From: Escherichia coli | GTDB lineage: Bacteria > Pseudomonadota > Gammaproteobacteria > Enterobacterales > Enterobacteriaceae | Length of the DNA stretch: 64,000 nt | Reading direction: 5' to 3' (one strand) | Assembly (NCBI RefSeq): GCF_051903065.1 | Contig: NZ_CP178439.1 | Shown: one piece after another, positions 18,780 to 64,000 of the stretch | Layout: every line of letters starts with the position of its first letter | Numbering within the stretch: position 1 is the stretch's first letter | Translations under genes and position numbers: made by a program | The notes under the pieces: model-generated | Seen by the model: the letters and a program-made list of their open reading frames with translations, nothing else | What the model was told of the DNA's origin: nothing | The model's database searches: none

Positions 18780-19599
18780 GGCACTGTTGCAAATAGTCGG
18801 TGGTGATAAACTTATCATCCCCTTTTGCTGATGGAGCTGCACATGAACCCATTCAAAGGCCGGCATTTTCAGCGTGACATCATTCTGTGGGCCGTACGCT
18901 GGTACTGCAAATACGGCATCAGTTACCGTGAGCTGCAGGAGATGCTGGCTGAACGCGGAGTGAATGTCGATCACTCCACGATTTACCGCTGGGTTCAGCG
19001 TTATGCGCCTGAAATGGAAAAACGGCTGCGCTGGTACTGGCGTAACCCTTCCGATCTTTGCCCGTGGCACATGGATGAAACCTACGTGAAGGTCAATGGC
19101 CGCTGGGCGTATCTGTACCGGGCCGTCGACAGCCGGGGCCGCACTGTCGATTTTTATCTCTCCTCCCGTCGTAACAGCAAAGCTGCATACCGGTTTCTGG
19201 GTAAAATCCTCAACAACGTGAAGAAGTGGCAGATCCCGCGATTCATCAACACGGATAAAGCGCCCGCCTATGGTCGCGCGCTTGCTCTGCTCAAACGCGA
19301 AGGCCGGTGCCCGTCTGACGTTGAACACCGACAGATTAAGTACCGGAACAACGTGATTGAATGCGATCATGGCAAACTGAAACGGATAATCAACGCCACG
19401 CTGGGATTTAAATCCATGAAGACGGCTTACGCCACCATCAAAGGTATTGAGGTGATGCGTGCACTACGCAAAGGCCAGGCCTCAGCATTTTATTATGGTG
19501 ATCCCCTGGGCGAAATGCGCCTGGTAAGCAGAGTTTTTGAAATGTAAGGCCTTTGAATAAGACAAAAGGCTGCCTCATCGCTAACTTTGCAACAGTGCC
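18780..19599 (+). mobile_element. tnpA: IS26 copy 2, transposase CDS 18843..19547, Asn at residue 184 (KRIINATLG)
   Basis: Both 14-bp IRs present; GGC to AAC codon change relative to copy 1; flanks do not match. Confidence 0.95.
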
Positions 19600-25589: not shown

Positions 25590-26409
25590 GGCACTGTTGC
25601 AAAGTTAGCGATGAGGCAGCCTTTTGTCTTATTCAAAGGCCTTACATTTCAAAAACTCTGCTTACCAGGCGCATTTCGCCCAGGGGATCACCATAATAAA
25701 ATGCTGAGGCCTGGCCTTTGCGTAGTGCACGCATCACCTCAATACCTTTGATGGTGGCGTAAGCCGTCTTCATGGATTTAAATCCCAGCGTGGCGTTGAT
25801 TATCCGTTTCAGTTTGCCATGATCGCATTCAATCACGTTGTTCCGGTACTTAATCTGTCGGTGTTCAACGTCAGACGGGCACCGGCCTTCGCGTTTGAGC
25901 AGAGCAAGCGCGCGACCATAGGCGGGCGCTTTATCCGTGTTGATGAATCGCGGGATCTGCCACTTCTTCACGTTGTTGAGGATTTTACCCAGAAACCGGT
26001 ATGCAGCTTTGCTGTTACGACGGGAGGAGAGATAAAAATCGACAGTGCGGCCCCGGCTGTCGACGGCCCGGTACAGATACGCCCAGCGGCCATTGACCTT
26101 CACGTAGGTTTCATCCATGTGCCACGGGCAAAGATCGGAAGGGTTACGCCAGTACCAGCGCAGCCGTTTTTCCATTTCAGGCGCATAACGCTGAACCCAG
26201 CGGTAAATCGTGGAGTGATCGACATTCACTCCGCGTTCAGCCAGCATCTCCTGCAGCTCACGGTAACTGATGCCGTATTTGCAGTACCAGCGTACGGCCC
26301 ACAGAATGATGTCACGCTGAAAATGCCGGCCTTTGAATGGGTTCATGTGCAGCTCCATCAGCAAAAGGGGATGATAAGTTTATCACCACCGACTATTTGC
26401 AACAGTGCC
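25590..26409 (-). mobile_element. tnpA: IS26 copy 3, transposase CDS 25642..26346, Asn at residue 184
   Basis: IRs at both ends; inverted relative to copy 2. Confidence 0.95.
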
Positions 26410-29955: not shown

Positions 29956-30775
29956 GGCACTGTTGCAAATAGTCGGTGGTGATAAACTTATCATCCCCTT
30001 TTGCTGATGGAGCTGCACATGAACCCATTCAAAGGCCGGCATTTTCAGCGTGACATCATTCTGTGGGCCGTACGCTGGTACTGCAAATACGGCATCAGTT
30101 ACCGTGAGCTGCAGGAGATGCTGGCTGAACGCGGAGTGAATGTCGATCACTCCACGATTTACCGCTGGGTTCAGCGTTATGCGCCTGAAATGGAAAAACG
30201 GCTGCGCTGGTACTGGCGTAACCCTTCCGATCTTTGCCCGTGGCACATGGATGAAACCTACGTGAAGGTCAATGGCCGCTGGGCGTATCTGTACCGGGCC
30301 GTCGACAGCCGGGGCCGCACTGTCGATTTTTATCTCTCCTCCCGTCGTAACAGCAAAGCTGCATACCGGTTTCTGGGTAAAATCCTCAACAACGTGAAGA
30401 AGTGGCAGATCCCGCGATTCATCAACACGGATAAAGCGCCCGCCTATGGTCGCGCGCTTGCTCTGCTCAAACGCGAAGGCCGGTGCCCGTCTGACGTTGA
30501 ACACCGACAGATTAAGTACCGGAACAACGTGATTGAATGCGATCATGGCAAACTGAAACGGATAATCAACGCCACGCTGGGATTTAAATCCATGAAGACG
30601 GCTTACGCCACCATCAAAGGTATTGAGGTGATGCGTGCACTACGCAAAGGCCAGGCCTCAGCATTTTATTATGGTGATCCCCTGGGCGAAATGCGCCTGG
30701 TAAGCAGAGTTTTTGAAATGTAAGGCCTTTGAATAAGACAAAAGGCTGCCTCATCGCTAACTTTGCAACAGTGCC
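29956..30775 (+). mobile_element. tnpA: IS26 copy 4, transposase CDS 30019..30723, Asn at residue 184
   Basis: Both IRs present; flanks ctttgcgt / cactgatc do not match. Confidence 0.95.
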
Positions 30776-46031: not shown

Positions 46032-46851
46032 GGCACTGTTGCAAATAGTCGGTGGTGATAAACTTATCATCCCCTTTTGCTGATGGAGCTGCACATGAAC
46101 CCATTCAAAGGCCGGCATTTTCAGCGTGACATCATTCTGTGGGCCGTACGCTGGTACTGCAAATACGGCATCAGTTACCGTGAGCTGCAGGAGATGCTGG
46201 CTGAACGCGGAGTGAATGTCGATCACTCCACGATTTACCGCTGGGTTCAGCGTTATGCGCCTGAAATGGAAAAACGGCTGCGCTGGTACTGGCGTAACCC
46301 TTCCGATCTTTGCCCGTGGCACATGGATGAAACCTACGTGAAGGTCAATGGCCGCTGGGCGTATCTGTACCGGGCCGTCGACAGCCGGGGCCGCACTGTC
46401 GATTTTTATCTCTCCTCCCGTCGTAACAGCAAAGCTGCATACCGGTTTCTGGGTAAAATCCTCAACAACGTGAAGAAGTGGCAGATCCCGCGATTCATCA
46501 ACACGGATAAAGCGCCCGCCTATGGTCGCGCGCTTGCTCTGCTCAAACGCGAAGGCCGGTGCCCGTCTGACGTTGAACACCGACAGATTAAGTACCGGAA
46601 CAACGTGATTGAATGCGATCATGGCAAACTGAAACGGATAATCGGCGCCACGCTGGGATTTAAATCCATGAAGACGGCTTACGCCACCATCAAAGGTATT
46701 GAGGTGATGCGTGCACTACGCAAAGGCCAGGCCTCAGCATTTTATTATGGTGATCCCCTGGGCGAAATGCGCCTGGTAAGCAGAGTTTTTGAAATGTAAG
46801 GCCTTTGAATAAGACAAAAGGCTGCCTCATCGCTAACTTTGCAACAGTGCC
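46032..46851 (+). mobile_element. tnpA: IS26 copy 8, transposase CDS 46095..46799, Gly at residue 184
   Basis: Both IRs present; flanks do not match. Confidence 0.95.
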
Positions 46852-53317: not shown

Positions 53318-54137
53318 GGCACTGTTGCAAATAGTCGGTGGTGATAAACTTATCATCCCCTTTTGCTGATGGAGCTGCACATGAACCCATTCAAAGGCCG
53401 GCATTTTCAGCGTGACATCATTCTGTGGGCCGTACGCTGGTACTGCAAATACGGCATCAGTTACCGTGAGCTGCAGGAGATGCTGGCTGAACGCGGAGTG
53501 AATGTCGATCACTCCACGATTTACCGCTGGGTTCAGCGTTATGCGCCTGAAATGGAAAAACGGCTGCGCTGGTACTGGCGTAACCCTTCCGATCTTTGCC
53601 CGTGGCACATGGATGAAACCTACGTGAAGGTCAATGGCCGCTGGGCGTATCTGTACCGGGCCGTCGACAGCCGGGGCCGCACTGTCGATTTTTATCTCTC
53701 CTCCCGTCGTAACAGCAAAGCTGCATACCGGTTTCTGGGTAAAATCCTCAACAACGTGAAGAAGTGGCAGATCCCGCGATTCATCAACACGGATAAAGCG
53801 CCCGCCTATGGTCGCGCGCTTGCTCTGCTCAAACGCGAAGGCCGGTGCCCGTCTGACGTTGAACACCGACAGATTAAGTACCGGAACAACGTGATTGAAT
53901 GCGATCATGGCAAACTGAAACGGATAATCAACGCCACGCTGGGATTTAAATCCATGAAGACGGCTTACGCCACCATCAAAGGTATTGAGGTGATGCGTGC
54001 ACTACGCAAAGGCCAGGCCTCAGCATTTTATTATGGTGATCCCCTGGGCGAAATGCGCCTGGTAAGCAGAGTTTTTGAAATGTAAGGCCTTTGAATAAGA
54101 CAAAAGGCTGCCTCATCGCTAACTTTGCAACAGTGCC
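53318..54137 (+). mobile_element. tnpA: IS26 copy 9, transposase CDS 53381..54085, Asn at residue 184
   Basis: Both IRs present; flanks do not match. Confidence 0.95.
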
Positions 54138-54843
54138 TGATGAAGCCGGGTGTGCCGGTGATCCCAAGCGCTTCGCCCAGCTGCATGTTGCCGGAGATCA
54201 CGTTTTCATATCGGTTTTTTTCCCTGTCAGAAAACGTGCTGTTAAACCCTGACTTATCCACCACAGTATTAAAGTCGCTGAGTTCGAATTTGCGTTGAGA
54301 GGTCATGAAGGTATGAGCCACAGCCATCAGGTTGTTGTGGTATTTACGATAGGCTTCAGCACCGAAATTCTGATAGACGTGCAGACCCGTAGCGGCCCCC
54401 ATGGCAGATACAGGTTTTGAACCGGCAAAAATCGGGAATTCTTTAAAGAAGAATTTTACATCTTTGCTCTGATTCATTACCGATTCAACAACAGGTGTAA
54501 CCCGCATGCAGTAAATACACTGATAGTCGAAGAACTCGATTACCGCGACGTCGGCGTCATCCGGGCCGATGTTTGGCGTCTCCTTGGTATCCAGCAGAGC
54601 TGGCGCATATGGAATTATTCGTTCCACTGAGGCACTTACGTTCTGATTTTCCAGCGCCTTACCTGCTTCCACTAAATAATGGGGATTTTTTACCAGGTAA
54701 GTAGCGGCAATTTTGCCAATTTCTTCCTCACTGAGCACCTTCGGTTTAAAATAAGTTGCCGCGATTAACGCCGAGGCAGCGGTAGCAATTACCGCAGAAA
54801 TTAAAATCGTGGCCATCGGTTTTAAATAAAATTCTTTAGACAT
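54138..54843 (-). pseudogene. Thioredoxin-fold DsbA/DsbC-like protein, 3'-truncated by IS26
   Basis: CIYC active-site motif, N-terminal TM/signal; reading frame runs into IS26. Confidence 0.55.
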
Positions 54844-54949
54844 AGCTACCTTTATGCTTTTCAGCCTGTTAGTTATTAACCTGCGATGGATTATACTGGC
54901 CCGGTAAATCGGAATTATTCGTGAAACAATGCTTTTTGGAGATTAAAGG

Positions 54950-55561
54950 ATGATTAGGCAGGGCTTTATACTCACAACCGCAATGCTTTTGAGTGGTTGT
55001 GGATATCATTTCGCAAACCAGGTAGATGCGTACGATCTAATGCCTCGTCCTGTTACAAATAAAAGGTTTCAGATAGTCCCTCCGGACGAAAGTATTCAGT
55101 CCAGAATGTTTTCAGGCCGTTTTGCTGATGGATTAGCAAAAAAAGGAGTCATTATTTCCACTCACCAGCCAGATTATGTGCTCAGGTTCCGAATGAGCAG
55201 CTCACAGGAGAACATGCAGTATAGCGAGCAGCTTCTTACTGGGGTGACAGGCTACGTTGTAGATAAAAAGACAACGAGAACTGACAAGCATGGCGAATCG
55301 CATACTGACTATGACTACAGGCCGGTCGATGGGGTAATAGGCACTGAGACGATGTCGCAGATGCACTATATGCGACAGCTGGATGTCGAGGTATACCCGT
55401 CAGCGAAAGGAGCAAAGCAGGTTCTGAAAGTGAGTATGCAAAGCAATGCACCTGTGCCGTCAGACAGCATTGCTTATTCAGCAATGATCGACGCCTTTAC
55501 TGATAAATTTGATGCGCCGCTGCGTTCCGGAAATTATGTTGCAGTGATCCCCTGGAACTGA
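54950..55561 (+). CDS. Lipoprotein (203 aa)
   Basis: Lipobox LLSGC at the signal-peptide end. Confidence 0.5.
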   Translation: MIRQGFILTTAMLLSGCGYHFANQVDAYDLMPRPVTNKRFQIVPPDESIQSRMFSGRFADGLAKKGVIISTHQPDYVLRFRMSSSQENMQYSEQLLTGVTGYVVDKKTTRTDKHGESHTDYDYRPVDGVIGTETMSQMHYMRQLDVEVYPSAKGAKQVLKVSMQSNAPVPSDSIAYSAMIDAFTDKFDAPLRSGNYVAVIPWN

Positions 55562-55620
55562 AAGCAGACGGCGGGAAGAGAATGTTCAAAAGTGACTTTT
55601 GGACACGCACATAAACGTGG

Positions 55621-56043
55621 CTATCGCCCTCCCCCATTAAAATCATAAAGTCGGTAAAGATCGCCCATCGTGATGGAATTGGGCTTATTAATGATTAGAT
55701 ACTGTAACTGTTCTTTATGTTGAGTACTGGCGGCTGCATTCATAAGCACTTCCAGGTAGAACTTGTAGCCTATGCTTCGCTCTGAATACATATACTGGAA
55801 CTGCATCAGTAAAATGCCTGACATAACATACAACAGCAGCAGACTGAGTAACACAGTGCTATCAGGCTGTTCCAGTGCCATACTGACATACCCTGAACCC
55901 AGAATGCACAGAAGCCAACCCGTCATTAGAGCAGGCACCCTACGACTCAGACGTTCATAACAACGTTTTATTACGGGATCCCGGAGATACTTTTTGTCAG
56001 GTATCCCCGTTGCCCTGATGACGAAGTTACTGAGTATCGACAT
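55621..56043 (-). CDS. Membrane protein (140 aa)
   Basis: ORF with two TM helices. Confidence 0.45.
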   Translation of the reverse strand: MSILSNFVIRATGIPDKKYLRDPVIKRCYERLSRRVPALMTGWLLCILGSGYVSMALEQPDSTVLLSLLLLYVMSGILLMQFQYMYSERSIGYKFYLEVLMNAAASTQHKEQLQYLIINKPNSITMGDLYRLYDFNGGGR

Positions 56044-56076
56044 CTTTTTTCCTTCTGGACGCTCTCAGTCAATAAA

Positions 56077-56469
56077 TCAGGCCAGGCGCTCATTGAAAGC
56101 TACCACGAGCTGCGAATCGGGATTTTTTACCAGTTCGGGCCGGATAACTTTTAGTTGCCTCGTTGGGGCGAGCTCATCTGTAGGCCTGATGGTGGTATTA
56201 CCCGGCCCCTTGCGGGTACTGTCGGTGTTTACCTTGAGCTTTTTATTTCCCAGGTAGCTTTCCATCTTTTTAGAGATGGTGTCACCTGTGGTCGCAACAC
56301 CAGAGAGTTCCTTTAGTTGTTCACCTTGATCCATTTGTACCGATGACATCAGAAATACGATTCCTGGATCGTTTTCCGTTCCACAGGCTCCGTACTGACA
56401 TTGTGCAGCGAAAACGGGCTGTACACCTACAGCAACCAGCATTAACGTACTCAGTAAAGTAGATTTCAT
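56077..56469 (-). CDS. Secreted protein (about 130 aa)
   Basis: Signal peptide MKSTLLSTLMLVAVGVQPVFAAQ. Confidence 0.4.
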   Translation of the reverse strand: MKSTLLSTLMLVAVGVQPVFAAQCQYGACGTENDPGIVFLMSSVQMDQGEQLKELSGVATTGDTISKKMESYLGNKKLKVNTDSTRKGPGNTTIRPTDELAPTRQLKVIRPELVKNPDSQLVVAFNERLA

Positions 56470-56493
56470 ACACACCTCTTACAGTCGGAAAAG

Positions 56494-57243
56494 TTACTTT
56501 TGCGCAGCGCCCATTTGGGTCACCAGGTTTTCCGGGCTCAGCCACCCCGTAAATAACTGCGGTTTGCCGCTTAGTGTCACCATGGTAGGAGTACCTTGCA
56601 GCGGGATTGTTGAGGCCACCTGGAAATGCGATTTGATAATGTTTAAGCAAGCCTCATCAGGACGTCCTTCCGGGATAGTTGAAACCGGATTCATCGCTGC
56701 ATCCAGAGCTTCGTTTGGCTTTGCTGAACACCAGATTTTGGCCATGTTCCCGGCTACTACCGAGTTCAGTCCTGCACGTGGGAATGCAAGAAACTTAATC
56801 GAAATACCGGCATCAAGATAAGACTTCAGATCATGATGCAGTTTTTGGCAGTATCCACAGGTTATATCGGTAAAGATAGCAAGCCGGTATTTTTCGTTTG
56901 GTGATTTGTAGTCGATGGATTTTGTTTTGGATGCGAATTCCCGGACGCCCATTAAAATGGCCTGCTCAGTGGTGTTTACCACATCTTTACCTTTCACGTG
57001 GAATAAGCTTCCGGTAAAAATGTAATCTCCGTCTTTGCTCACGTAACTTACCCCCTCCCTGGAAATCACCGTAAAAATATCTTTTACTGGCGAGGGTTCG
57101 ACGTGCTCGATTGAAAGCCCAATGGCTTTGAGCTTATCCCGGGCTGCATCTGGCAGTACCATTGTATTAACCGGCTCGGCATTCATCGTGAAGGCGGTAC
57201 TTAATGAAAGAAGTAATACCGATGCCTTAATAATTTTTTTCAT
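56494..57243 (-). CDS. dsbC: Thiol:disulfide interchange protein DsbC-like (conjugation-associated)
   Basis: Signal peptide, CGYC active site, DsbC-like length (249 aa). Confidence 0.7.
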   Translation of the reverse strand: MKKIIKASVLLLSLSTAFTMNAEPVNTMVLPDAARDKLKAIGLSIEHVEPSPVKDIFTVISREGVSYVSKDGDYIFTGSLFHVKGKDVVNTTEQAILMGVREFASKTKSIDYKSPNEKYRLAIFTDITCGYCQKLHHDLKSYLDAGISIKFLAFPRAGLNSVVAGNMAKIWCSAKPNEALDAAMNPVSTIPEGRPDEACLNIIKSHFQVASTIPLQGTPTMVTLSGKPQLFTGWLSPENLVTQMGAAQK

Positions 57244-57390
57244 TTATGCTCCTTGAATCGAGCACTAATATTATCACGCCCAAAAATTCCAGAATTTTGC
57301 TTAAACGCTTAAATCAACGGGTAAAGCCGAAAGAAAGTCGATAGATATATGGGAGAATAGATAAAACGTAGATTCAGTGGAGAAATCGTT

Positions 57391-57930
57391 GTGTTTACAC
57401 CACCAGCAGATGATGTGAAACCTATTCCCGTTCCTGATGAGATTTACACTCAGTGCATTACGGATGCCGCCCGCTTCTTCGGAATTGATGCCGAACTGGT
57501 TTTTACGTTGTTTGACAATGAAGGCGGTAAGGTTGGTACTTTCAGCAGGAATACTAACGGCACTTATGATATTGGCCCGATGCAGATCAACTCATCCAAT
57601 CTGCCTGAAATAAAAAAGCATTTCCCGACTGTAACGTGGCGGGTTCTGGCTTACGATGCTTGCGCTAGTTTCTGGGTTGGAACATGGTGGCTCTACAGAA
57701 AAATTGTTGATCGCAAGGGCAATGTGTTTGAAGGGATTGCAGATTACAACAGCAAAACCCCAAAGGTACGTGCAAAGTACATATTTAACTTCATGGTAAA
57801 GTACAATCGCCGGATCCAGCAGCGTAACGGGATGGGTGAGCTTTATCAATGGACCCAACAACCTCCTCGATACAATGGCCATATAGCTAAAAATGTCCCG
57901 GAGCAAAACCCGACTCCTGTTGTTAAATAA
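57391..57930 (+). CDS. Lytic transglycosylase (SLT domain) associated with transfer apparatus
   Basis: YDIGPMQIN SLT motif in a 179-aa protein. Confidence 0.65.
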   Translation: MFTPPADDVKPIPVPDEIYTQCITDAARFFGIDAELVFTLFDNEGGKVGTFSRNTNGTYDIGPMQINSSNLPEIKKHFPTVTWRVLAYDACASFWVGTWWLYRKIVDRKGNVFEGIADYNSKTPKVRAKYIFNFMVKYNRRIQQRNGMGELYQWTQQPPRYNGHIAKNVPEQNPTPVVK

Positions 57931-58012
57931 ATTCAACCTGATATTACAGAAGATCATCGAGTAGCTTGGGTACCCCCCCGCAAAAAATTCGCATAGACTC
58001 AGGGGTAATAAA

Positions 58013-58579
58013 TTGTCTTTTTCTGCAAGAAATATATTTAAGATTCTCTCTTCTTTCTTGATGCAGAAAAGCCCTCTTCATGAAGAAGTATGTGTTCCTG
58101 AAGAAACAACAGCTGGTTTATGGGGCCCTCTCCCTGATTCGCATGTCGTGCTTTTCTTAGATTTCGATGGGGTTTGTCACAGGTGCAAAAATGAAACCTT
58201 TGAGCGAATGCCATTGGTGGAAAAATTACTGGATAAATGCCCTTCCATGGTGATTGTCATCTCCAGTTCGTGGCGTGAATGTGCCAGTATAACTTACCTG
58301 AAATCTCTTTTCCGGCTACCTTATAGAGACAAAGTCATAGGTGCTACCGATTCGGTATATTTAAAACCTAATCAGTCAGGTGTGCGGGCTGCTGAGTGTG
58401 AGGACTTTGTATTTTCACATCGAGTTAAAGCATTTATCTGCCTTGATGACGACGAATCATTATTCCCGGTCGGTTATCCACATTTGCAAAAAACCAATTA
58501 TTACACCGGCCTCACCGAATCTGATCTTGCAGCTCTTAACACCAGGTATCATCTGCTTATGAAACGTTGGGCTTCCTGA
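58013..58579 (+). CDS. HAD-superfamily-like hydrolase (188 aa)
   Basis: FLDFDGV motif I-like sequence; assignment tentative. Confidence 0.4.
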   Translation: MSFSARNIFKILSSFLMQKSPLHEEVCVPEETTAGLWGPLPDSHVVLFLDFDGVCHRCKNETFERMPLVEKLLDKCPSMVIVISSSWRECASITYLKSLFRLPYRDKVIGATDSVYLKPNQSGVRAAECEDFVFSHRVKAFICLDDDESLFPVGYPHLQKTNYYTGLTESDLAALNTRYHLLMKRWAS

Positions 58580-58686
58580 ATTAAAGTAACTTTTACGGAG
58601 AGCATGCCCGCATTATCAGTTCTATGCTTCTCCATTTCTGCCCCGGGTCAAAGCATTGCACAGTTGGAAGAAAACATGCCGGTCTC

Positions 58687-59976
58687 TTAAGCTTGCTGCT
58701 CAGTTTGGTTCCGGTGCTGAAAAACCTGCCAACGGTGCTTTAGGAATTCAGTATTGATGGGTTTACGCAGCGGCTTAATAAACTCTCCTTGATATGCCGC
58801 TAAATCATGATCTACCGCCAAAGCTTCAGCGAGAATGTTAACCTCCAACGTCACCGGATGAATGGCAATCATGTTTGCGTCGAAAAGATCGTGTATATCA
58901 TGGCGTAAGAGCAACCCATTTGTATAATGGTCTACTCCTCCGTTACGATGCTCCATCAGATGAGCAGCCTCAGTGCGCTGGCGCAGTCTAGAGCCTGTAA
59001 TCACACATTGGTCATAACAGTTGTTGCGGACGGCTTCTGCAAATGAGGCCTGATCTGGTCGTGTCTCGACAGTTGTCTTACTACCCTTACGCTTACCCGG
59101 TACAGTAGTTTCATCAGGAATATTCGGCTGAAGCTCCTTTTCTTCTATACCATCAGTCTTCATAGCGACCATAATCGCGGCCGGTGGAGATTTAGGCTGA
59201 TCTTCCTGCGATCTTTCGCGGCCACCAACTGGATACCCTAGAAAACCCTCAATGATCTCTAGTGGAGGTAATGTAGCGTTTGAACGTGCATAAATAGCGA
59301 ACTCTGCGGCACGTCCGCCGGGAATATATCTACGTACCAGTATTGGAAGAGAGGCTTCTTCATCTGGTTCCTCTTTTTCCGACAGGATTATTCGTTCGGT
59401 GAGACGGGCTGAATTTTTTTTCATTTCACTCAACAGTCTATTGCGTTCTTTTACCTTTCGGTCATTATCCTCCAACATCTTACGATGACTAACCTTAGCC
59501 AGATGGTCTTCCAGTTCCTGTATATATTCGGGATCGATAGTGTCAATTAGACCGAACGCCATCAACCGCTCCCCCCTTGTTTTACAAGATTCTAGCCGAA
59601 CGCGAATGTACTCCTTACGCTTGGCCATCAAATGTTCTTTTTGTTTTTTTTCTCGAATTACACGGAGCTGAGTATTGTAATTAGAATAAACGGTTTCGCT
59701 ATTCTGCTCTGTCTCTAGAGCAAATTTTTGTAGGTGTTCACGTAGTTTTTTACGGGTATTTTTGGGGGCATGCATTACGGTACGCTCAATGTATGAGCCT
59801 GTGCAGCGTAAAGAAAGTACAGTTTCAGCATGGGAATAACCAGCATTGAGACGATAGCGGGCAATTTTAAGCAAATTATTAAAGTGTGCACCATTACATA
59901 TACCTAGTTCTTCCAAGACACGACGTTCTCTATCATTAATAGATGGATGGTTAATATCTTTTACTTTGTTTGCCAT
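58687..59976 (-). CDS. HNH endonuclease domain protein with charged, probably coiled-coil N-terminal region (429 aa)
   Basis: C-terminal AAHLMEHRNGGVDHYTNGLLLRHDIHDLFD HNH-like motif. Confidence 0.55.
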   Translation of the reverse strand: MANKVKDINHPSINDRERRVLEELGICNGAHFNNLLKIARYRLNAGYSHAETVLSLRCTGSYIERTVMHAPKNTRKKLREHLQKFALETEQNSETVYSNYNTQLRVIREKKQKEHLMAKRKEYIRVRLESCKTRGERLMAFGLIDTIDPEYIQELEDHLAKVSHRKMLEDNDRKVKERNRLLSEMKKNSARLTERIILSEKEEPDEEASLPILVRRYIPGGRAAEFAIYARSNATLPPLEIIEGFLGYPVGGRERSQEDQPKSPPAAIMVAMKTDGIEEKELQPNIPDETTVPGKRKGSKTTVETRPDQASFAEAVRNNCYDQCVITGSRLRQRTEAAHLMEHRNGGVDHYTNGLLLRHDIHDLFDANMIAIHPVTLEVNILAEALAVDHDLAAYQGEFIKPLRKPINTEFLKHRWQVFQHRNQTEQQA

Positions 59977-60065
59977 GTCCTGTGTCTCAGTGCCTATTCA
60001 GCCGGAACATCTACTACATAAAGAACGAGATTGTACAGAAATCAGCTAAGTTTATGAATAAAAAA

Positions 60066-60090
60066 GGCCGCAAATTTATACTTTGCGGCC
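60066..60090 (-). terminator. Rho-independent terminator downstream of the TraG-like gene
   Basis: GGCCGCAAA-TTTATAC-TTTGCGGCC hairpin with a U-run on the minus strand. Confidence 0.5.
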
Positions 60091-60156
60091 TTCACTGTTT
60101 AACACCATATTTTAGTAAATACGTTTAATTTTCATTAGGTTATATTTGAAACTCAC

Positions 60157-63100
60157 CTACCTTTTATTTTCATTAAGCCACTGATCCGCTTTATCGACAC
60201 GTGACTGGTAAGGCTCATTTGTGTTGCTCAGCTCTGACTTCATGTACTGAATGAATTCATCTGCTTTCTGAGGCCCAAAGCGTGGGTCATCCGTCAATTG
60301 CTGCCGGATAGCCCTTTCAGAGTTCTGCGCTGCATTCGCATAAGTCGAAACGCCGTCGCTGCTAATACTCTGATACCGGTCACTTACAGCTGCGACGCCA
60401 TCAGACATCTGCATGTGATTAAGGACTTTACCCTGGAGAGAATCAGGCATATTTGCAGGGTTAGAGGCATCATTTGCTATCGATGTCTGGGTTTGAAGGA
60501 TGCCCGCTCCCGTAAGCATCTCATTTACCGGTTTCGCCCCAACGCTGGTTAGCGTATCCGAAACAAATTGCTGGCCCCCGAGTAGCGCACCAGAAATCGC
60601 GCCCCGCTCAGTGTTGGCCTCTATCTTTTCCCCAACCAAGCGATCTGTGACGGTCTGAGTGCGGTTACCAACGAGACCACCGCCCGACCCACCCTCTCCT
60701 AGGTTTGCCCGTACGACTGACTCAAGTGAACCATCAGCTCTGTTATGAGTGTTGAAACTGCTATGGATGCTCTGAACGTCATTCATACTCCAGTTAACGT
60801 TATAGTTACCCAGTTCATTAAGGATCTTCTGGGTATCCGCTTTGAGCTGCTCTCTTTCGGCACCGGTAGCCATGGTGCTGGCACCATAGGTAAAGACAGC
60901 TTGCTGTGCCAATTCAGCTCGCTTATCGTCCCGGCTTAAGTTCGGGTTGTTGGCAACACGACTAAAGTAGTTATCAGTGTTATTAGATAAGCCACGAACT
61001 TGACCGCTCTGATACATACTGTTCAAAGCAGTGGCTCGTTGATCCATTCCATCACCAACCACCCGACCTCCGGTAGCCTTTTCCAGATCGTTAAATGTGC
61101 CTTCTGCATTTCTGACATCCTGACCTGAATTGACGACTTTCTCTACACCCTGATTATTCAGTACAGGGCCATTCGTTTTGAGAGAATTGAGCACATTCCT
61201 TTCTTCATCAGAATAAGTGCGGCCCACGTTGTTGTTATGTATTCCCTGAATATCGCCTTTGCCCGCGTTATCAAGGTTATACGGAGTAAAGCCAGCTTCA
61301 CTTTTTCCAGGGACACGCTGAGTCGCGTCCTGAGCGTTGGAGGAAAGACCGAGTTTAGCCTGCGAATCAACACTTCCACCCAGTTCCCCTACGCGTGACG
61401 CACTCATCACGCCAGACGTATTTACGCTGTCAGGAGTTCTATCCTGTGCCTGAGTGATAGTATTAATTCCTGACCCTTCGCCTGAAATTCTGTCGAGCTG
61501 ATTGGTGATAGGTAGCAGCTGCTGTGCATTACCACCGAAGTCGGAAACCAGACTTTTAAGCAGGCTGGAGGTTTCACGGAGATCCTGTTTATTACTTTCG
61601 GCCGTCTCTCCCCGGGCGGTATCAATCGCAATTTTTTGCTCACTGAAATCTCGTGTTGCAGCCACAAGCGCGTCAGTACGTTGAAGCTGCGAACCAAGCT
61701 GATTACTGGCCTTGAAGGTATCGTTATAGGAGTTGAATTTCTCCATAAACGCATTCTCATCCAGCCCATTCTTACGAGCAAAATTCCTTACATCATCATC
61801 ACTGAAGTTTTTGTTGCGAATAGAATCGGAGAACCTGTCCAGGTTAATGCTTTGTTTAGAATCAAGGCTCATTCCACTATTGGAGCTGGCGTTAGTCGAT
61901 ACCGATGTAGAAATGTTTTGCGCCATCGTCTGTGTCGCCTGGTTCATTTTCGACGATGCTTCTTTAAACGCATTAGTATTGGATATCTGATCGCTGCTTA
62001 CCTGAGACGCCGCTTTACTGAACTGGTCAGTCAAAGCAGAATCCTGGCTAAGCTGATTCGTGATTGCTTTTGAAAGGTCATTTGAAAGCGAGTCACTGCC
62101 TGTATTGGTCTTAGATGCGCCGCTACTCAATTGCCCTGCTACAGCTGCTTTCAGCCCGGCTCCGTTGCCAGTTCCAGCACCTCCATTAAGCCCAGCGTTT
62201 AGAATAACATTTGAAGCAATGCTGGCCATCTGAGACGCACTCACCCCATGTTTCGTTGCAATACCTTCTGCTACAGAGGCACCAATCTTATCCGAGATCT
62301 GCTTCATTGTTTGCAGGTTGGTTGAGAACTGCTGGCTCGACTGTCCTGACCTTCCAATTTCACTCATCTGACTGTAACCAGCCTGGAATGAATTACTTGC
62401 CGCACTCATAACTGATGAGGTTACAGCTGATCCTTGCCCCTGGCTGTTAGCGATACTTGAACCAGCATTCCACATTCCAAGACGGAAATTACTTGAATCA
62501 ACTGCGCCGCCATCGCTGTATCCCTGACCGGTACTGGTCAAGGCGGTTCGTGTCACGTCACCAAATGAAGATTTACCGCTGTTAGGGCCATCCCATACTT
62601 TGGGCGTTACATGACCAGTATCCACCGGCGCATCGGGGGTCACTCCCTTAACCGCATTCATCATCGGGTGAATCGACTGTGTCATCAGGAATAATGTGAG
62701 TACCGGAATCAGAGCATAAAGCGCGGAAGCAACAGACAGGTATGAACTGTATGTTTCCGCAAGCCCTGGGAGCCCCATCCACGTGACGGCATTATTCTGG
62801 CTGTTGAGGGTGCTCCAGGTATCCAGATCGGCCGTCGCGACTTTCTTCACATACGCGTTGACCATTACTGCCGTAAGCGGCCACATATTCACGAAGAGAA
62901 TAAGTTGCAAATATTTCGCCGCAGCGGCAACACCATTACCACCTAACGCCAGCAGCATAAGCAAAGCAAATGGAGCAACCATGTAAGCAAACATCTCAAG
63001 GAATGCGATTGCTGCTCCAGACAGTTGTAACCACAACTGGCCCTGTGAAGCCATTGTGTTGGTTCGCTTCAGAGAAGCCTCAAACAACTGCATATCGGAA

Positions 63101-63981
63101 GCCAGACCGAGTGGGGTCTTATATTTGCTTGCGCCATTTCTGAGCTCATTCATTATGAACAGGTTCAGGGTGGCGTCATACGAACCAATAGCCTTACCGT
63201 ACATACCATTTGCTGACGCCATAACATCAGTAAAACTTGCGCCGGTAGGTGCACCATTTGCTTCGTCTGGAGTAAGGATGCCGTTTGTCTGTCCTATAAG
63301 GGAAATAGTCTGGCGAGCTTCAGCTGTACTGGTAACCTGTTTCACAGTTGACCAGACCTCATCACACGTACCAGATTTTGAACCGTTAGCGCCAACAATA
63401 CTGGCAGAGGCATTCTTCAGTGCGCCTTTCATCGCCTGATTAATCCGGTCCATGCTATCTGCCAGATTAGCTGAGAAAATATCGTTAAAAATAGTTTCTT
63501 TACCGGCAATATTTGCGCTTGAGTTTTGGGTAGCCTTCAGGCAGTTGTATGCAAGAGACTGAACGGTAGCACATACGTTCATTGGCCCTAGCCCGCTGGC
63601 CGGTTCAGGAAATGCAGAACAGTAGCCCTGGCTATCGCCGCCCCATTGCAAAAACTTCACGAATCGGATCATCGGACCGAGGGTGATGTCATCGTCCAGA
63701 GTTGTTGCAGACAGGTCCACCGGAGAAAGCGGATCAAACGCAGTTTTATAATCCTTCAGCAAACCCTGGCTTAAGTTAGTGGTGACGGTGGCCATCGCAG
63801 CAATAAAAATTGGAATTCCGTCGACGTTTCTGACCTCTCCCGACTTTACAGATTCAATAGTTACATCCACTCGAACCATTGCCATCATGAAAAGGATCAA
63901 CCCCAAAAACCAGGAGAAAAACGGTAATTCATTTTTGGTCGGAGCCTGAAGCCATAGCCACGTTTTATAGAATAGGCTCAC
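60157..63981 (-). CDS. traG: TraG/TrhG-like mating-pair stabilisation protein (1274 aa)
   Basis: Multi-TM N-terminal TraG_N-like region then long S/T/N/Q-rich periplasmic region; size and context match conjugative-plasmid TraG/TrhG. Confidence 0.65.
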   Translation of the reverse strand: MSLFYKTWLWLQAPTKNELPFFSWFLGLILFMMAMVRVDVTIESVKSGEVRNVDGIPIFIAAMATVTTNLSQGLLKDYKTAFDPLSPVDLSATTLDDDITLGPMIRFVKFLQWGGDSQGYCSAFPEPASGLGPMNVCATVQSLAYNCLKATQNSSANIAGKETIFNDIFSANLADSMDRINQAMKGALKNASASIVGANGSKSGTCDEVWSTVKQVTSTAEARQTISLIGQTNGILTPDEANGAPTGASFTDVMASANGMYGKAIGSYDATLNLFIMNELRNGASKYKTPLGLASDMQLFEASLKRTNTMASQGQLWLQLSGAAIAFLEMFAYMVAPFALLMLLALGGNGVAAAAKYLQLILFVNMWPLTAVMVNAYVKKVATADLDTWSTLNSQNNAVTWMGLPGLAETYSSYLSVASALYALIPVLTLFLMTQSIHPMMNAVKGVTPDAPVDTGHVTPKVWDGPNSGKSSFGDVTRTALTSTGQGYSDGGAVDSSNFRLGMWNAGSSIANSQGQGSAVTSSVMSAASNSFQAGYSQMSEIGRSGQSSQQFSTNLQTMKQISDKIGASVAEGIATKHGVSASQMASIASNVILNAGLNGGAGTGNGAGLKAAVAGQLSSGASKTNTGSDSLSNDLSKAITNQLSQDSALTDQFSKAASQVSSDQISNTNAFKEASSKMNQATQTMAQNISTSVSTNASSNSGMSLDSKQSINLDRFSDSIRNKNFSDDDVRNFARKNGLDENAFMEKFNSYNDTFKASNQLGSQLQRTDALVAATRDFSEQKIAIDTARGETAESNKQDLRETSSLLKSLVSDFGGNAQQLLPITNQLDRISGEGSGINTITQAQDRTPDSVNTSGVMSASRVGELGGSVDSQAKLGLSSNAQDATQRVPGKSEAGFTPYNLDNAGKGDIQGIHNNNVGRTYSDEERNVLNSLKTNGPVLNNQGVEKVVNSGQDVRNAEGTFNDLEKATGGRVVGDGMDQRATALNSMYQSGQVRGLSNNTDNYFSRVANNPNLSRDDKRAELAQQAVFTYGASTMATGAEREQLKADTQKILNELGNYNVNWSMNDVQSIHSSFNTHNRADGSLESVVRANLGEGGSGGGLVGNRTQTVTDRLVGEKIEANTERGAISGALLGGQQFVSDTLTSVGAKPVNEMLTGAGILQTQTSIANDASNPANMPDSLQGKVLNHMQMSDGVAAVSDRYQSISSDGVSTYANAAQNSERAIRQQLTDDPRFGPQKADEFIQYMKSELSNTNEPYQSRVDKADQWLNENKR

Positions 63982-64000
63982 ACCTGCTACAACGGCGGCC

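Follow-up and report, generated by a model that had tools for sequence, protein, structure and literature searches.

A lineage-specific gene for a predicted HNH_2 nuclease next to a fast-evolving core HAD gene on the backbone of IncHI2 plasmids

In VcaM4I, a stand-alone modification-dependent restriction enzyme, the catalytic residues H224, N241, D250, and D254 have been validated by mutagenesis; its HNH domain is toxic in isolation and is subject to autoinhibition by a linker helix (PMC7897488). The type II restriction enzymes AlwI, BbrI, and HphI have catalytic domains of the HNH_2 family (His-Me finger group 6) and carry out recognition outside the catalytic domain (PMC5714182). Here we compare with such enzymes the product of an HNH gene that lies, next to a HAD gene, on a 64,000-nucleotide stretch of Escherichia coli DNA (RefSeq assembly GCF_051903065.1, contig NZ_CP178439.1; hereafter the window). 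The part of the window from 54 to 64 kb is the backbone of an IncHI2 plasmid. Positions 57300-60200 were 100% identical to approximately 520 plasmids in PLSDB, all of them IncHI2 (e.g., pMCR_WCHEC050613, typed IncHI2A, MOBH, MPF_F), and in these identical plasmids the two products are annotated as "HAD domain-containing protein" and "HNH endonuclease signature motif containing protein."

The HNH gene occupies, in a lineage-specific manner, a variable slot between the HAD gene and trhG, and the HAD gene is a core gene of the IncHI backbone; the two are separate units with different histories. A preliminary description of this locus had treated them as a single story, a view that the comparisons below do not bear out. 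The same description had correctly called the HAD and HNH domains, had accurately pictured the N-terminal half of the HNH protein as long, charged, and coiled-coil-like, and had rightly placed the pair between a lytic transglycosylase and a TraG-like gene. Our preferred reading, to which we assign a probability of roughly 45%, is that the HNH protein works alone as a nuclease in defence or in competition between mobile elements and that the HAD protein is encoded by a separate, conserved accessory gene whose expression is co-regulated with that of the transfer genes. The features of the slot and its borders are as follows.

58013-58579, plus strand: HAD gene of the phosphatase type (HAD_SAK_2, PF18143)
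58570-60059, no strand: variable slot, placed by blastn breakpoints, the annotations of loci L002, L015, and L016, and sliding identity
58687-59976, minus strand: HNH gene, 429 amino acids (HNH_2, PF13391)
58690-59094, minus strand: HNH_2 catalytic domain, residues 295-429 (PF13391, profile match, AlphaFold 2 [AF2] model, and Foldseek)
59095-59226, minus strand: acidic, Pro-rich linker, residues 251-294, predicted to be disordered
59227-59376, minus strand: small conserved helical domain, residues 201-250 (conservation and AF2 helices)
59395-59763, minus strand: highly charged, coiled-coil-like helical hairpin, residues 72-194 (AF2 helices and charge)
59773-59934, minus strand: N-terminal four-helix bundle, residues 15-68 (predicted local distance difference test [pLDDT] above 90)
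60030-60058, minus strand: candidate sigma-70-like promoter for the HNH gene, TTCATA-17-TACAAT (consensus scan, pattern match only)
60063-60093, minus strand: intrinsic terminator of the trhF-trhH-trhG operon (scan and sequence)
60157-64000, minus strand: trhG (TraG_N family, mating-pair formation), whose 5' end lies beyond the window

The catalytic half of the HNH protein was compared to profiles, sequences, and structures of known nucleases. Residues 324-373 matched the HNH_2 profile PF13391 with an E value of 1.5e-10 (41.2 bits against a cut-off of 21), and all of the homologs examined likewise matched PF13391. The C-terminal 135 residues were 46-90% identical among 14 aligned homologs, and an RPDQ motif, C320, C324, H339, N353, H362, and D366 were invariant in an alignment of 15 homologs (A1). 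A full-length profile made from A1 gave no match to PDB sequences; the profile of a trimmed, deeper C-terminal alignment (A3) detected VcaM4I (PDB 6yex) with an E value of 8.9e-10 and TagI weakly. H339, N353, H362, and D366 align with VcaM4I H224, N241, D250, and D254, placing H339 on the catalytic H224, and the predicted catalytic set of a general-base His, a structural Asn, and a metal-ligand His/Asp pair is complete. The AF2 model of residues 283-429 had a pLDDT of 93 and showed the beta-beta-alpha-metal fold. When the HNH domain model was submitted to Foldseek, it matched VcaM4I (3.6e-5), TagI (1.1e-4), and EcoKMcrA (0.025), with a probability of 1.00 for the first two. Taken together, these results identify the catalytic half as a predicted active nuclease of the class of stand-alone modification-dependent restriction enzymes. 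As is characteristic of type IV enzymes, the HNH gene stands alone without a cognate methyltransferase: no methyltransferase was found within the 54-64 kb stretch, so the adjacent partner of a type II restriction-modification (R-M) system is missing, and apart from the HNH gene the slot (58570-60059) holds no open reading frame (ORF) for a methyltransferase or an immunity-like protein. The family is small, a word-indexed search giving strong matches in 27 clusters, all from Enterobacterales. In PADLOC-DB v2 only a weak, generic "HNH" model (PDLC04132, E value of 1.7e-5) matched, over the catalytic domain.

The N-terminal half has a different character. It begins with a bundle of four helices (residues 15-68, HTH-like by eye), followed by a segment (residues 71-200) in which 41% of the residues are K, R, E, or D and for which AlphaFold predicts two long helices, 72-130 and 149-194, forming the hairpin. 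The small domain that comes next carries the motif LVRRYIPGG...F...PLEIIEGFLG, with helices between residues 210 and 246 and with F226 and F245 invariant, and at 46-70% identity in full-length homologs it is the best-conserved N-terminal part. It is joined to the HNH domain by the acidic linker, the least conserved segment of the protein (isoelectric point of 4.4, six Pro residues), and the pLDDT is below 50 for residues 253-309. A Pfam scan of the N-terminal regions of 11 members, with E values up to 1 accepted, gave nothing consistent, and a search of PDB folds with the N-terminal region gave no significant structural relative. When an N-terminal profile was compared to 1.84 billion representative proteins, only 23 clusters were recovered, and every one of the 10 newly found clusters that were scanned carried HNH_2. 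As judged from these searches, the N-terminal 294 residues and HNH_2 form a fixed, narrowly distributed architecture.

We then compared the slot across IncHI plasmids. Homology (blastn) to the sister IncHI2 lineage, represented by pME-1a (L002) and comprising approximately 430 plasmids, extended over 54138-58569 and resumed at 60060, with 1.5 kb between that could not be aligned; the edges of the slot are the HAD stop codon on one side and the trhG terminator on the other. The SLT and HAD genes of the IncHI1 plasmid pMAK1 and of an IncHI1B-type Citrobacter plasmid are followed by 246-371 bp and then trhG, with no nuclease gene. The window HNH gene is thus subject to intergenic presence/absence polymorphism among close relatives: the slot is empty in L015 and L016, is filled by another cassette in L002, and in a third IncHI2-like lineage (L003, approximately 91.5% nucleotide identity) holds a homolog of the window HNH gene at the same place. 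The cassette in L002 (9395-10972) encodes a 353-amino-acid HNH protein (PF01844) on the strand opposite to that of the window HNH gene, with the core GWQVHHKIPLDDGG, which is colicin/WHH-like by eye. This protein strongly matched two PHROGs of unknown function, and its gene is followed after 10 bp by a YrhA-family gene (NF038335), a toxin-immunity-like layout. Kinship between this nuclease and the window HNH protein was considered and rejected, none being detectable by comparison. The empty-slot pMAK1 and IncHI1B-type plasmids and the approximately 430 IncHI2 plasmids with the unrelated cassette are all typed as conjugative. Since IncHI1 and the sister IncHI2 lineage lack the HNH gene and are nevertheless typed as conjugative, the gene cannot be an essential transfer function.

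The terminator after trhG is strong, with a 12-bp stem, six G-C pairs, and a T-run, and because it is followed by the promoter-like site inside the cassette, the HNH gene seems to form a transcription unit by itself. The convergent HAD/HNH intergenic region folded no better than shuffled sequences and contained no clear bidirectional terminator, an Rfam scan of 57000-60400 found no RNA feature, and neither the HAD gene nor the HNH gene has a second copy in the window. In pSEN110055 (L025, 1501-2791), the HNH ORF is in two pieces, by frameshift or by sequencing error. A second, shorter HNH_2 protein (202 amino acids, WP_000289256; p131, L014 5797-6405) is encoded near the plasmid hns gene on the IncHI2 backbones of both lineages and is 44% identical to residues 296-424 of the window HNH protein; IncHI2 plasmids thus often encode two HNH_2 nucleases.

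The locus bears the marks of recombination at two levels. Between the window and L003, the HNH domain has a synonymous divergence (dS) of 0.29, within the range of the flanking backbone genes (0.17-0.49), whereas residues 1-294 are saturated at synonymous sites (dS from 1.6 to more than 3). This contrast indicates that recombination with a distant allele exchanged the N-terminal module and left the catalytic module in place. Between the window and L002, the backbone is 98-100% identical in 200-bp windows and the HAD gene is 88-91% identical, with dS values of 0.27 for HAD, 0.06 for SLT, and 0 for DsbC. The divergence of the HAD gene amid a nearly identical backbone points to an exchanged tract of approximately 57940-60100 that comprises the HAD gene and the cassette.

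Homologs of the HNH gene outside IncHI2 plasmids were found in the following contexts.

P0007, Salmonella bongori chromosome: type I R-M genes, the HNH gene, Mokosh MkoC (PADLOC E value of 0), and a second, R-M-like HNH_2 gene
P0008, Salmonella island with AlpA and YfjJ-like genes: type I R-M genes and a NERD-helicase gene
P0004, Enterobacter plasmid: CcdAB; a 91-amino-acid ORF, the HNH gene, an 86-amino-acid ORF, and PifA (E value of 2e-238); Septu PtuA/PtuB approximately 6 kb upstream
P0005, Pectobacterium integrative island: resolvase gene and integrase fragment
P0009 and P0012, SSU5-like phage-plasmids of approximately 100 kb: the same slot in both, with a YafQ toxin gene, the HNH gene, a tail-fibre gene, and the large terminase gene; the N-termini differ
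P0026, phage-plasmid-like contigs: Dam, RNase H, DHFR, and ThyA genes
P0027, Serratia plasmid: between Rep3 and IncFII RepA
P0018, chromosome: no mobile-element or defence marks

The HNH family is thus a stand-alone gene of mobile elements that lies repeatedly, but not always, beside known defence genes. The P0004 string, an apparent four-gene unit on Enterobacter hormaechei plasmid contigs (L004/L005, 7716-11697), has the HNH gene upstream of the gene for PifA, a member of the family of the F-plasmid T7-exclusion protein. The 91-amino-acid ORF that precedes P0004 is homologous, at 41% identity, to one that lies upstream of P0005 in Pectobacterium. A conserved small partner ORF was nonetheless rejected, as the 90- to 91-amino-acid ORFs of P0004 and P0005 are unrelated to that of P0009 and absent from the window. 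Also rejected was the HAD gene as a general partner, none of the nine contexts outside IncHI2 having a HAD gene nearby. The SSU5-like slots, on E. coli contigs of approximately 60-100 kb (L011, 6457-13480; L022/L023, 6712-13608), encode members of 395 and 471 amino acids and are another case in which the N-terminus has diversified while the locus stayed fixed. The preliminary description had offered defence, exclusion, and DNA processing as roles for the HNH protein. All of these are compatible with our results, and defence is the best supported, by the type IV-class domain and the R-M, Mokosh, Septu, and PifA neighbours.

The main rival to this reading is that the HNH gene encodes a selfish, free-standing homing-type endonuclease, whose N-terminal part recognizes a sequence at or near the HAD-trhG junction of plasmids lacking the gene and which cuts there and is copied in by recombinational repair, without benefit to host or plasmid. 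The slot is intergenic between conserved genes, is empty in some relatives, and holds another nuclease gene in others; the HNH gene has its own promoter-like site; and the divergent tract of cassette plus HAD gene (88-91%) in a backbone of 98-100% identity resembles a co-conversion tract. The SSU5-like homologs with different N-termini at one conserved slot would also fit, and in its series of DNA-binding module, long flexible linker, and nuclease the protein is reminiscent of I-TevI and I-HmuI-type enzymes. However, the catalytic domain belongs to the HNH_2 class of dimeric restriction enzymes and not to the HNH_3 or I-HmuI class, and the HNH domains of the window and L003 have diverged in step with the backbone (dS of 0.29), which argues for long vertical residence and not for a recent invasion. 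Several homologs sit in defence islands, and no target site could be identified. Incompatibility and entry exclusion, moreover, make the co-residence of two IncHI2 plasmids rare, which would limit the opportunities for homing. We therefore consider a homing origin of the HNH gene unlikely.

Toxin genes in the same surroundings bear on another possibility, that the HNH protein is a toxin or part of an addiction module that would kill plasmid-free segregants or neighbouring cells while its own N-terminal region, or an unlinked plasmid factor, restrains it. The nuclease in the sister-lineage slot, with its colicin/WHH-like core and the YrhA gene 10 bp on, has a toxin-immunity-like layout; CcdAB or YafQ toxin genes lie beside homologs on plasmids and phage-plasmids; and isolated HNH_2 domains are toxic (PMC7897488). 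In the window, however, neither the cassette nor its immediate surroundings contain an immunity-like ORF, searches of the HNH protein revealed no domain for secretion or delivery, and the small ORFs found upstream of some homologs are not conserved and are absent. For YrhA, too, no literature on a role as an immunity protein was found. This makes a toxin function for the HNH protein very improbable.

The HAD gene has a different distribution. Its ORF encodes 188 amino acids from a TTG start with an upstream GGGG/AGGAG-like ribosome-binding site that is conserved in the sister lineage; the start in RefSeq is an ATG at 58061, giving 172 amino acids. The protein matched PF18143 (HAD_SAK_2) with an E value of 7e-20 (72.2 bits, cut-off of 27.5) over profile positions 1-138 of 139. 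The HAD catalytic motifs I (DxDxT/V), II (S/T), and IV (DD) are present as DFDGV, SSSWRE, and CLDDD and are kept in five IncHI lineages (three IncHI2, IncHI1, and one IncHI1B-type plasmid). The gene was found in 2015 PLSDB plasmids across all IncHI groups; it is syntenic in IncHI1, IncHI2, and the IncHI1B-type plasmid and is linked to SLT and Dsb genes in Klebsiella IncHI1B plasmids. No meaningful match to the HAD protein was found among PDB sequences, so no solved homolog was detectable, and a word-indexed search found only close IncHI relatives. The literature likewise yielded nothing on the HAD_SAK_2 family. In pSDE-SvHI2 (L024, 1059-1756), an IS1 is inserted between the SLT and HAD genes. 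In the published IncHI2 plasmid pLH30, the mcr-1 transposon lies between the DsbC gene and the HNH gene (PMC5748712), and papers that mention both IncHI2 and HNH name the HNH gene only as a landmark near mcr-1 insertions. The HAD/HNH neighbourhood tolerates insertions.

Among the backbone genes in this stretch, the HAD gene is also the most divergent. Positions 57938-58579 were 88-91% identical to the sister lineage at the nucleotide level, compared to 98-100% for the neighbours, and the ratio of nonsynonymous to synonymous substitution (dN/dS) within IncHI2 was 0.25-0.44, compared to 0.04-0.10. Between IncHI2 and IncHI1 (pMAK1), amino acid identity was 63% for the full-length HAD protein (72% in a local tblastn match), 90% for SLT, and 84% for DsbC. 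The HAD gene is thus the fastest-evolving backbone gene here, with the HAD motifs intact in every lineage.

A link between the HAD gene and transfer comes from the IncHI1 plasmid R27. The gene order in R27 is trhF (R0126), trhH, trhG, R0129, R0130 (an SLT/bfpH/trbN-like muramidase) ... R0135 (dsbA), and as the same order is found in IncHI1 pMAK1, R0129 is by synteny the ortholog of the HAD gene and occupies the same place. R27-type plasmids differ from the window in having no HNH gene between R0129 and trhG. In a microarray study of R27, R0129 and R0130 were up 3.76-fold and 3.13-fold, respectively, at 25 °C relative to 37 °C, together with the tra operons (PMC7366339); 25 °C is the mating-permissive temperature for R27. 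These data tie the unit formed by the SLT and HAD genes to the transfer regulon in IncHI1, and the same may hold for IncHI2, to which it is carried over by gene order. The statement in the preliminary description that the two genes had no obvious conjugation role was therefore too strong for the HAD gene, a core gene whose R27 counterpart is induced approximately 3.8-fold at 25 °C. Orthology to a known accessory transfer gene, which that description had named as grounds for rejecting its view, was not found.

Another possibility is that the two genes are expressed together with the Tra1 genes as an accessory module that processes DNA during IncHI2 conjugation or establishment, in which the nuclease nicks or trims and the phosphatase heals the ends. 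Both lie at the edge of Tra1, beside trhG and the SLT and Dsb genes; the R27 ortholog of the HAD gene is induced at the mating-permissive temperature; the HAD gene and the cassette make up one divergent recombination tract between IncHI2 lineages; and in both IncHI2 lineages a gene for an HNH-superfamily nuclease adjoins the HAD gene. Conversely, the HAD gene persists without a nuclease gene in IncHI1 and IncHI1B-type plasmids, in none of the nine contexts outside IncHI2 does the HNH homolog adjoin a HAD gene or tra genes, the nucleases of the two IncHI2 lineages are unrelated and oppositely oriented, and the strong terminator separates trhG from the HNH gene. A processing pair is, on this evidence, quite unlikely.

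If the HNH protein is, as we prefer, a nuclease for defence or competition, it might act as follows. By analogy with VcaM4I and TagI, its C-terminal HNH_2 domain would dimerize and make double-strand cuts. The N-terminal region (bundle, hairpin, small domain, and linker) would supply target recognition and would keep the nuclease off host and plasmid DNA until foreign DNA of a phage or rival plasmid appears, by which means the plasmid could shield its host cell or exclude competitors. Because the linker helix of VcaM4I autoinhibits the HNH domain, N-terminal control of this kind has a precedent, and the N-terminal region of the window protein is probably autoinhibitory. The HAD gene, by analogy with R27 R0129/R0130, would be switched on with the transfer genes, and its product may remove a phosphate from a nucleic-acid end or a nucleotide as an accessory to transfer or establishment. 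The comparisons above establish the domain identities, the conserved catalytic residues, the borders of the cassette, the distribution among lineages, the recombinational swap of the N-terminal module, and the surroundings of the homologs; we infer nuclease activity, dimerization, autoinhibition, the nature of the target, and any defence phenotype.

Several observations weigh against this interpretation. A modified-base sensor (PUA, SRA, EVE, YTH, NEco, wH, or SBD) is not recognizable in the N-terminal region, so the analogy to type IV enzymes extends to the catalytic half alone. AF2 gave a mediocre model of the full-length protein (pLDDT of 71, predicted TM score of 0.30), and the HNH promoter is a consensus match only. 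No system-specific model of PADLOC-DB v2 matched, so the HNH protein is not part of a recognized defence system, and literature searches with the HNH protein accession and with the Pfam family plus defence returned nothing relevant. The IncHI2 slot itself is no defence island; only approximately four of the nine non-IncHI2 contexts contain known defence genes, two of these (P0007 and P0008) being closely related, and the P0018 context has neither mobile-element nor defence marks. For the HAD protein, co-regulation comes from the gene order of R27 and not from a measurement in IncHI2, and the family name alone suggests a nucleic-acid substrate.

A broader proposal, which we regard as doubtful, is that the HNH gene founds a new single-gene family of immunity or competition among enterobacterial mobile elements, in which a helical sensor module not described before would steer the restriction-type HNH_2 nuclease and, by recombining between alleles, alter its specificity. 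The HAD-trhG junction would then be a dedicated hotspot for the exchange of nuclease cassettes, and the fast-evolving HAD protein might have a part in this conflict as well, perhaps repairing nucleic-acid ends that nucleases of the host or of rivals have damaged as the plasmid enters.

To the left of the slot, the backbone runs up to an insertion sequence.

57391-57930, plus strand: SLT-domain lytic transglycosylase gene (Pfam SLT, E value of 6e-5; same annotation in L001)
56494-57243, minus strand: DsbC-like gene
54950-56475, mixed strands: three small hypothetical genes
54031-54843, minus strand: dsbA, with its 3' end truncated
53318-54137, strand not applicable: IS26

The SLT gene is the left neighbour of the HAD gene, is co-directional with it, and is 99% identical at the amino acid level to that of the sister IncHI2 lineage. 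On the other side of the slot, the L001 counterpart of trhG is annotated as a 1317-amino-acid TraG N-terminal domain protein. The three small genes encode 203 (plus strand, a lipoprotein by IncHI1 annotation), 140 (minus strand), and 132 (minus strand) amino acids and have no Pfam match; they are kept between the Dsb genes in all IncHI lineages examined and by gene order correspond to R27 R0134, R0133, and R0132. The IS26 copy at 53318-54137 adjoins the backbone at 54138. It has removed the last approximately 104 bp of dsbA, whose ORF continues into IS26, as well as the umuDC genes that precede dsbA in related IncHI2 plasmids. The window contains at least eight complete IS26 copies (17 exact terminal-repeat matches), and further IS26 ends were located at 849-1668, 18780-19599, 25590-26409, 29956-30775, 33026-33845, 35026-35845, 39111, and 46032-46851.

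The catalytic domains are of known kinds, and both genes are already generically annotated in RefSeq. Three aspects we did not find described: the N-terminal architecture and recombinational modularity of the HNH family, the nuclease-cassette slot at the IncHI2 HAD-trhG junction, and the HAD gene as a fast-evolving core IncHI gene. The IncHI2 lineage concerned is a major carrier of mcr-1 and multidrug resistance in Escherichia coli and Salmonella, with the exact HNH gene on approximately 520 sequenced plasmids. Restriction of phages or rival plasmids by the HNH protein, if it occurs, would amount to a backbone-encoded trait with effects on plasmid success and phage therapy, and the stand-alone restriction nucleases would gain a new sensor architecture. 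If the gene is instead a selfish endonuclease or inert cargo, the finding amounts to routine annotation. The swappable N-terminal module and the nuclease slot provide a natural experiment on the evolution of specificity, and the HAD gene belongs to the few conserved genes of the IncHI backbone that are co-regulated by temperature and have an enzymatic fold but no assigned role.

How do the two proteins compare to known systems? The window HAD protein matches the Pfam family of the HAD_SAK_2 domains of "Swiss army knife" RNA-repair proteins almost end to end, with its motifs kept. Unlike those proteins, it is small and stands alone, without kinase, ligase, or nuclease partner domains, among conjugation genes. 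The 3'-phosphatase domain of T4 Pnkp is presumably a more distant relative of these domains. Phage homing endonucleases combine a modular DNA-binding part, a linker, and a nuclease, and the free-standing ones (I-HmuI, I-TevI, and T4 Mob/Seg) resemble the window HNH gene in being intergenic, polymorphic for presence and absence, and self-transcribed. They differ from the window HNH protein, which is of another HNH subclass, has the reverse domain order, and has co-diverged with the backbone. Toxin-immunity systems are set apart by an adjacent immunity gene and a delivery domain, neither of which was found for the window HNH gene. AlwI, BbrI, and HphI have the same Pfam catalytic family as the window protein, whose gene lacks an adjacent methyltransferase gene and whose recognition region is unrelated to theirs. 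The closest solved relatives of the window HNH domain by fold, and in the case of VcaM4I also by profile, are VcaM4I (EVE-HNH), TagI (SRA-HNH), and EcoKMcrA. Unlike these three, the window protein has a 120-residue charged helical hairpin and a disordered acidic linker and no known sensor; modification dependence of the type IV kind would be problematic for 5-methylcytosine or N6-methyladenine in Dam+ Dcm+ enterobacterial hosts. What the window protein shares with VcaM4I, TagI, and EcoKMcrA is the overall layout: one polypeptide in which a helical connector joins the recognition part at the N-terminus to the nuclease at the C-terminus, encoded without a methyltransferase partner.

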